NCBI RefSeq assembly: GCF_003334385.1
Contig: NZ_QOWN01000040.1
DNA length: 38,787 bases
From: Escherichia coli
GTDB lineage: Bacteria > Pseudomonadota > Gammaproteobacteria > Enterobacterales > Enterobacteriaceae
Reading direction: 5' to 3' (one strand)
Shown here: one piece after another, positions 1 to 1,264 of the stretch
Position numbering within the stretch: the first letter of the stretch is position 1
Layout of the letters: each line of letters starts with the position of its first letter
The notes under the pieces: generated by a model
What the model was told of the DNA's origin: nothing
The model's database searches: none
The model's input: only the letters and a program-made list of their open reading frames with translations
Program-made: the position numbers and the translations under genes

Positions 1-58
1 ATGTTCCCCGGTGAGAACCCAGATTGCTGTAACTTCCGTCAGGTGCACCAATCGTTCG

Positions 59-77
59 CCACACACCGGATTGGCAC
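59..77 (-). other. shufflon sfx-like recombination site (19 bp)
   Basis: The minus strand reads GTGCCAATCCGGTGTGTGG. This fully matches the R64-type sfx consensus GTGCCAATCCGGTNNNTGG as I recall it. It lies 63 bp upstream of the Rci-like recombinase start. Confidence 0.6.
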
Positions 78-139
78 AGAGACATTGCATTTCTGATTCA
101 GTATTCCTACCTTCCTCGGATTTATCGTGGAAGGCAGAT

Positions 140-1264
140 ATGTTTCGAAAAATAAAAATTCGCAAAATGACTCTCAACCGGGCGCTGGACAAATACCTGA
201 AGACAGTATCCATCCACAAAAAAGGTCATCTGCAGGAGTTTTATCGCGTCAATGTGATTAAACGTCACCCTATGGCCGAGCGCTATATGGATGAAATCAC
301 CACCGTTGATATCGCCACTTACCGGGATCAGCGTTTGGCTCAAATTAACCCACGAACAGGGCGTCAAATCACCGGAAACACCGTCCGTCTTGAACTTGCT
401 CTTTTATCATCATTATTCAATATCGCCAGTGTGGAATGGGGGACATGCCGTATGAATCCTGTTGAACTGGTCCGAAAACCCAAAATCAGTAGTGGACGCG
501 ATCGTCGCCTGACTTCTGGCGAAGAACGCCGACTCTCCCGCTATTTCAGAGATAAAAATCAGCAGCTCTACGTTATCTTCCATCTGGCCCTGGAAACAGC
601 AATGCGACAGGGGGAAATCCTCACATTACGCTGGGAACACCTCGATTTGCAGCACGGAGTGGCGCATCTTCCTGAAACGAAAAATGGTTTACCACGCGAT
701 GTCCCACTCTCCCGGAAAGCTCGCAACTACCTGCAAATTCTGCCACAACAGATAAACGGCAATGTGTTCAGTTACACCTCATCCGGTTTCAAAAGCGCCT
801 GGCGTACCGCACTTCTGGACCTGAAAATAGAAAATCTGCATTTTCACGATCTCCGTCATGAAGCCATCAGCCGATTTTTCGAACTTGGTACATTGAATGT
901 CATTGAAGTTGCCGCTATTTCAGGCCACCGCTCCCTGAACATGTTAAAACGGTACACGCATCTCCGGGCATATCAGCTGGTCAGCAAACTCGATGCCAGG
1001 CGTAAACAGACCAGCAAAATTTCCCCTTATTTTGTTCCCTACCCTGCAACTGTCGGGTGCAGAAACGGGCTGTTTGTCGTGACACTGCACGATTTCGACC
1101 TTGAAACCCGTGCAGAAACCCGGGAACTGGCTATATCTCATGCCAGCGTATTGTTGCTGCGCACACTGGCACAGGCGGCTCAGCGGGGTGAACGCGTTCC
1201 CACGCCAGGCGAGCTACCCGCAAACATTGATGAACGGGTCATGATTTGTCCGTTAACAAACTGA
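140..1264 (+). CDS. rci: shufflon-type tyrosine recombinase (Rci-like) with a C-terminal extension of about 90 aa
   Basis: Tyrosine-recombinase residues are visible: [10 protein letters not shown] (Arg), HDLRHEAIS (H-x-x-R) and [13 protein letters not shown] (His/Tyr). It sits next to an sfx-like site and upstream of IncI-ordered tra genes. I chose the ATG at 140 because GGAAGG lies 5 nt upstream. The track ORF start at 11 reads through the sfx site. Confidence 0.75.

Follow-up and report, generated by a model that had tools for sequence, protein, structure and literature searches.

An Escherichia coli contig that very probably begins within the pilV shufflon of a pCT-like IncK plasmid

Organization of the locus

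The window, by which is meant the whole stretch of 38,787 nucleotides analysed here, opens with rci, followed in order by traE, traF, traH, traI, traJ, traK, a gene for an LPD7-domain protein and traL through traY, after which come excA, the gene described in pCT as a "putative sigma factor", hok/pnd, trbA and the start of trbB. A search with positions 1..3000 finds 955 plasmids, and in 229 of these the identity reaches at least 99%; nearly all of the 955 are conjugative plasmids of E. coli and Shigella, 946 being typed as conjugative. Over the same interval only 3 bases differ from pCT (99.9% identity), an epidemic E. coli plasmid of the IncK group that carries blaCTX-M-14 (NC_014477/FN868832). 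The matching records that were inspected are typed as IncI-gamma/K1 (pCT) and IncK2/Z (pA16EC0054-1), with mating-pair formation type MPF_I. Judged from its sequence, the window represents the transfer region of a conjugative E. coli plasmid of the IncK group (IncI complex) that resembles pCT. The placement of rci with tra genes directly downstream is the arrangement of R64 and pCT, and the complete order pil operon, pilV, shufflon, rci, traE, traF is present in pCT, pA16EC0054-1, pDETEC33 and R64. The features of the left end are as follows, where s3 is our own name for a 709-bp shufflon segment, the remainder of which would lie to the left of the window:

1..58, minus strand: first 58 nt past the sfx site of a putatively silent PilV C-terminal exon, at the end of segment s3 (from identity to pCT and the pilV frame)
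59..77, minus strand: 19-bp sfx repeat, the rci-proximal boundary site of the shufflon (exact consensus match)
59..70, minus strand: conserved 12-bp right arm of sfx, TCCGGTGTGTGG (as defined in PMC5350095 and PMC11852207)
71..77, minus strand: 7-bp sfx core, GTGCCAA (as defined in PMC5350095 and PMC11852207)
78..89, minus strand: predicted 12-bp left arm of sfx, non-conserved, on the constant rci side (placed by the 31-nt site model, 12+7+12, of PMC11852207)
78..139, plus strand: 62-bp leader from the shufflon boundary to the rci start codon (read from the sequence)
140..1264, plus strand: rci, shufflon-specific tyrosine recombinase, 374 aa (from homology to R64 and pCT Rci, and PF00589)
1477..6129, plus strand: traE, traF, traH, traI and traJ of an I-type conjugation system (ORFs, with annotations from pCT, pA16EC0054-1, pDETEC33 and R64)

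The Rci recombinase

The rci reading frame is mechanically open from a GTG at position 11, and its start is placed at the ATG at 140, as in the homologues; pCT annotates rci at 6140..7264 of its locus, which corresponds to 140..1264 of the window. A start at 141 was rejected as lying in the wrong frame. The published pCT rci primers (PMC3377399) match the window at 222..239 and 1149..1166, positions that were read by eye.

The original prediction described the product as a tyrosine recombinase with a long C-terminal extension, and this description is borne out. The Pfam Phage_integrase domain (PF00589, E=5.7e-23) covers residues 123-276, which approximates the catalytic domain, and 102 residues (273-374) follow the catalytic Tyr272. 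The motif residues are R156 (AMRQGE), H236 and R239 (HDLRH), H263 (GHRS) and Y272 (KRYTH), and these R/HxxR/H/Y motifs align with those of HP1 integrase and R64 Rci. An extra C-terminal domain of this kind distinguishes Rci from Cre, Xer, HP1 and lambda integrases, which do not have it (PMC11852207).

Alignment to R64 Rci extends over the full length of the protein, with 281 of 373 positions identical (75%), 86% positives, three short gaps and a BLASTP E of 0; the C-terminal extension is included and aligns to within a few residues of the R64 end. The predicted likeness to Rci thus agrees with the alignment. pCT Rci (WP_013307880.1, pCT_093) differs at a single amino acid, with R287 in the window and K in pCT. 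The best relative of solved structure is HP1 integrase (E=7e-6), and lambda integrase scores about 2e-3 to 3e-3. In a scan with NCBIfam models, the protein falls below the cut-offs for XerA (37.6 bits against 220), XerC (37 bits against 335) and the tyrosine-type (Fim-type) DNA invertase (17.3 bits against 222). NCBIfam holds no Rci-specific model, and the family assignment is made by pairwise identity to R64 and pCT Rci. On this sequence comparison the recombinase is assigned as an Rci orthologue; it bears no such likeness to phage or ICE integrases.

That the gene might encode the integrase of a phage or genomic island, and that the site beside it might be an att-like sequence resembling sfx only incidentally, would be in keeping with its database label, which reads only "site-specific integrase", and with the Pfam search, which finds a generic Phage_integrase domain only. 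However, the 75% full-length identity to R64 Rci stands against E values of 7e-6 to 3e-3 for HP1 and lambda, the gene lies between pilV and traE in the conjugative backbone of the relatives, and the site beside it is an exact copy of the published sfx consensus; we therefore attach next to no probability to an integrase of this kind. The original statement that the first gene is not an island integrase is upheld by the weak HP1 match, by Xer and Fim scores far below their cut-offs and by the location of the gene inside a transfer region. Where databases label this gene "site-specific integrase", it should be read as rci, and no edge of an island should be placed there.

The sfx site and the rci leader

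In R64-type plasmids sfx joins a 7-bp core, always GTGCCAA, to a conserved right arm of 12 bp, TCCGGTNNNTGG (PMC5350095, PMC11852207); the 19-bp site with conserved core and arm that the original prediction gave for R64 agrees with both publications, and the window contains an exact match to it. The plus strand at 59..77 reads CCACACACCGGATTGGCAC and the minus strand reads GTGCCAATCCGGTGTGTGG, with 0 mismatches to the consensus, precisely as claimed. The latter sequence has already been catalogued in IncK2 plasmids as "repeat-g" (PMC5350095). The distance to the recombinase gene is likewise as given originally, 63 bp from the end of the site to the start codon (140-77), with 62 bp between them.

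The pattern GTGCCAATCCGGTNNNTGG has a single 0-mismatch occurrence in the window, at 59..77 on the minus strand. A second sfx-like match at 15651..15669, with 3 mismatches and inside a tra ORF, was rejected; two or more such matches appear in 11 of 100 shuffles. The occurrence of only one exact copy would be compatible with a chance 19-mer that happens to lie beside an unrelated recombinase, but an exact match appears in 0 of 100 dinucleotide-preserving shuffles of the window and the expected number is about 2e-5 (2x38787/4^16). Furthermore, in R64 a site of like orientation precedes rci by 51 bp (62 bp here), and the pCT copy is identical in both sequence and position. A coincidence of this kind is so improbable as to be negligible.

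On the left-arm side, the six pCT sites, one of which is identical to that of the window, have 0-1 nt in common, except for pairs that share an 8-bp spacer.

A promoter and terminator scan of 1..1600 found nothing beyond shuffle expectation, and within that scan no plus-strand sigma-70-like promoter was found in the 62-bp rci leader; the R64 leader between sfx and rci is 51 bp. The leader of the window contains, by eye, an inverted repeat at 110..134, CCTTCC (110..115) -N13- GGAAGG (129..134), which overlaps the likely ribosome-binding site of rci. As a meaningful element this repeat was set aside, since 6-bp arms are too short to be significant alone.

The PilV exon at the start of the window

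Positions 1..77 take in the last part of the 709-bp segment s3 together with its sfx and are identical to pCT. The first 58 bases match pCT 6001..6058 and pA16EC0054-1 5001..5058 (numbered in the extracted loci) without a difference, and the segment is placed differently in pA16EC0054-1. The alignment of pDETEC33 to the window begins exactly at base 59. Translation of the minus strand from sfx onward, in frame with pilV, gives 25 residues without a stop, and pCT pilV reads ..SCQSGTW.. across its own sfx. In the same frame xCQSGxW opens every exon of pCT (six) and of R64 (seven). In pCT, where it is complete, the exon that starts in the window has 117 aa and shares 67% identity with one of the R64 PilV exons, and homologues at 67-95% identity are found in R64 for five of the six pCT exons. 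The opening of the window had been placed "inside or at the edge" of a shufflon; the former applies, as bases 1..58 belong to the rci-proximal segment and form the start of a PilV exon.

The other exon of s3, which lies outside the window (plus strand, 5331..5723 of the extracted pCT locus), codes for a PilV C-terminus of 130 aa in which Pfam recognises a Phage Tail Collar domain (PF07484, E=6e-14); none of the seven R64 exons is homologous to it. A fusion of PilV to a tail-collar domain under programmed inversion has already been reported (PMC9881135). If this exon is used, a phage-type module would serve in recipient recognition, which adds little that is new given that report. The combined proposal that the thin pilus recognises recipients through a phage-type receptor-binding module supplied by s3, and that the isolate was switching while it was sequenced, appears unlikely.

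pilV and the shufflon in related plasmids

The window itself contains one sfx site and no pilV, and its sequence ends 58 nt beyond the site. The 6 kb upstream of rci in pCT contain pilQ/R/S/T/U-type genes, pilV and six exact sfx sites, of which each strand has three; the pCT PilV protein matches Pfam Shufflon_N (E=7e-99). pCT, pA16EC0054-1 and pDETEC33 each carry pilV followed by six exact sites, between which lie three segments of 531, 455 and 709 bp, with 8-bp spacers TGGCCTCC and GGAGGCCA. The segments are the same base for base in the three plasmids, whose flank is 99.9% identical to the window. They are nevertheless arranged in three ways, s1+s2+s3+, s3+s2+s1+ and s3+s1-s2+, and every break falls at an sfx site. 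These three arrangements among near-identical plasmids, a comparison of deposited sequences, indicate that the shufflon segments of this plasmid family are inverted and permuted at sfx. R64 has seven sfx sites, the last of them in minus orientation 51 bp before rci.

A survey of the junction between the shufflon and rci with window 20..125 matched 189 plasmids, of which 30 carry the junction at 80% or more in one place and 159 do not. In many of the matches sampled, the alignment begins at window position 65, inside the variable NNN of the sfx right arm, which implies that a different exon adjoins rci in those plasmids. The published pCT assembly likewise contained the shufflon region in multiple forms (PMC3377399). 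A pCT rci knock-out transferred less to Salmonella, particularly in liquid, while transfer to an E. coli recipient was unaffected (PMC4083329).

The original prediction placed a pilV/shufflon multiple-inversion switch immediately to the left of the window. In the plasmids that are 99.9% identical to it, exactly that place is occupied by pilV together with three segments and five additional sfx sites, some in each orientation, from which we infer that pilV and the partner sites also lie to the left of the window in this molecule.

Ends of the contig

The first 77 nt of the window consist of 58 nt of s3 and the 19-nt sfx, and this left-end 77-mer stops exactly at the boundary between the sfx core and the left arm, the point at which alternative contexts diverge. 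At the right end, the final 77 nt (38711..38787) belong to a multi-copy IS3-family element, of which they form the terminus (TGTAGTGGCACAC...) and which is present in many unrelated plasmids. This element interrupts the DsbC-family gene trbB (about 38256..38710), and the match to trbB of the relatives ends at 38710. Shared sequence of 77 nt at both ends is the pattern that a de Bruijn assembler with k=77 leaves at branch vertices. From this assembler convention, both ends of the window would be k=77 branch points of the assembly graph, and the left-end 77-mer would accordingly have had more than one right-hand neighbour in the reads. This suggests either that more than one arrangement of the shufflon existed in the culture used for sequencing or that the exon end is present in two copies. 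The contig end would then mark the assembly break expected from a DNA-inversion switch rather than the place where the molecule itself stops. Disruption of short-read assemblies by shufflons is noted in PMC5430464 and is attributed to Brouwer et al. 2015 in PMC5350095.

The left end bears on a further alternative, that of a decayed remnant in which rci and the terminal sfx survive, pilV or the partner sites have been lost or disrupted, and inversion no longer occurs. Decay has precedents in this group of plasmids: some IncK2 plasmids carry reduced shufflons with only two sfx sites (PMC5350095), and the shufflons of the pCT relatives pO113, pO26_vir and pSERB1 are inactive (PMC3377399). In addition, there is one sfx only in the window, and the plasmid already carries an IS insertion, in trbB. 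Set against this, rci is intact and one amino acid away from the functional pCT gene, the 58 nt of s3 are identical to plasmids with complete six-site shufflons, and the contig breaks exactly at the outer boundary of sfx, as the presence of multiple arrangements would be expected to bring about. Decay of the system is thus very unlikely. The reading that we hold with high confidence is that the left end of the window falls within the pilV shufflon of an IncK plasmid resembling pCT, with the last sfx at 59..77, a stored exon at 1..58 and Rci encoded at 140..1264.

Model for shufflon inversion

In R64 the full recombination site spans 31 nt and comprises a variable 12-bp left arm, a 7-bp core in which crossover takes place and a conserved right arm, also of 12 bp. 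Rci recognises the right arm specifically, and its extra C-terminal domain is believed to bring in a second monomer at the left arm; the asymmetry of sfx limits the reaction to inversions between inverted sites, and in E. coli no host cofactor is required (all from PMC11852207 and PMC5350095). By homology, the same mechanism would apply here, given the 75% identity of Rci, the identical core and right-arm consensus, and the pCT genetics; activity of the shufflon in this very molecule is likewise presumed.

In the model that follows from this analogy, bases 1..58 would begin a PilV C-terminal exon that is kept in store, unexpressed at present and directed away from rci. Rci, as assumed from R64, would bind the conserved right arm sequence-specifically, and a second monomer would be placed on the non-conserved left arm by way of the extra C-terminal domain, with strand exchange taking place within the GTGCCAA core. 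Because the sites are asymmetric, only inverted sfx sites would recombine, so that segments would be inverted singly or in groups and never deleted. Because sfx lies inside the reading frame, where it encodes Cys-Gln-Ser-Gly-x-Trp, each inversion would fuse a different C-terminal exon to the constant N-terminal region of pilV. In the pCT type, six exons on three segments would be available in this way, and the resulting change in the adhesin at the tip of the thin pilus would alter the range of recipients in liquid mating.

Comparison with known systems

Shufflons have been known in IncI-complex plasmids since the 1980s. That of the window is an already known system in a known plasmid lineage and offers little new biology; the pCT version has been sequenced, has been seen in several forms and has been tested by an rci knock-out. 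pCT has the same GTG-type sfx, the same rci-adjoining segment and the same downstream tra genes as the window.

R64 (IncI1) shares with the window the identical 7-bp core and 12-bp right-arm consensus, the orientation of the last sfx just upstream of rci, the order pilV-shufflon-rci-traE-traF and an Rci that is 75% identical, C-terminal domain included. It differs in having four segments (A-D) and seven sites, whereas the pCT type has three segments and six sites. The GTG and ATC variable triplets, both present in the pCT type, are absent from R64, and the pCT-type s3 exon with the phage tail-collar domain has no R64 counterpart.

The exact GTGCCAATCCGGTGTGTGG (repeat-g) and the same core are also found in IncK2 shufflons (pDV10, pDV45, pTMSA1088 and others; PMC5350095), although these have two to eight sites and belong to a different replicon subgroup; the replicon of the present plasmid lies outside the window. 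In practice, comparisons of IncK plasmids and epidemiological typing should mask the shufflon region.

The Gin and Cin inversion reactions, which switch the host range of phages Mu and P1, depend on an enhancer and on Fis. Their logic is the same, in that inversion swaps the C-terminal exons of a receptor-binding protein (PMC9881135), but the enzyme is a serine recombinase, unlike the tyrosine recombinase Rci, and a single segment is invertible.

Differences from pCT and other features of the backbone

Compared with pCT, the window lacks the ISEcp1-blaCTX-M-14 unit that pCT carries after traK: no such insertion is found at about 6416..6650, between traK and the next ORF, and at that place the window is a pCT-like backbone without the CTX-M-14 module. 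It differs further from pCT in the IS3-family insertion in trbB and in a 2.6-kb block with a phosphoethanolamine-transferase-family gene.

This block, at 31407..33977, is missing from pDETEC33, the closest relative. It encodes, on the minus strand, a 514-aa Sulfatase-domain protein of the phosphoethanolamine-transferase family (31687..33231), weakly similar to the CptA/EptA phosphoethanolamine transferases and far under the MCR cut-offs, and a DUF2569 protein (33428..33892). The full block is found at 99.9% identity in one PLSDB plasmid only (NZ_CP147067.1), and a homologue at about 78% identity is present in at least nine other PLSDB plasmids.

A 528-aa protein encoded on the plus strand at 27908..29494 has both a Sigma-70 region 4 domain and a TnsA-like endonuclease N-terminal domain, and probably corresponds to what has been described in pCT as an "unusual putative sigma factor"; knocking out the latter had no phenotype (PMC4083329).

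Finally, identity to pDETEC33 is 80-91% at the trbA/trbB end (36129..38710), against 98.7% over 59..31406, which points to a mosaic backbone that has recombined with another IncI-complex lineage.
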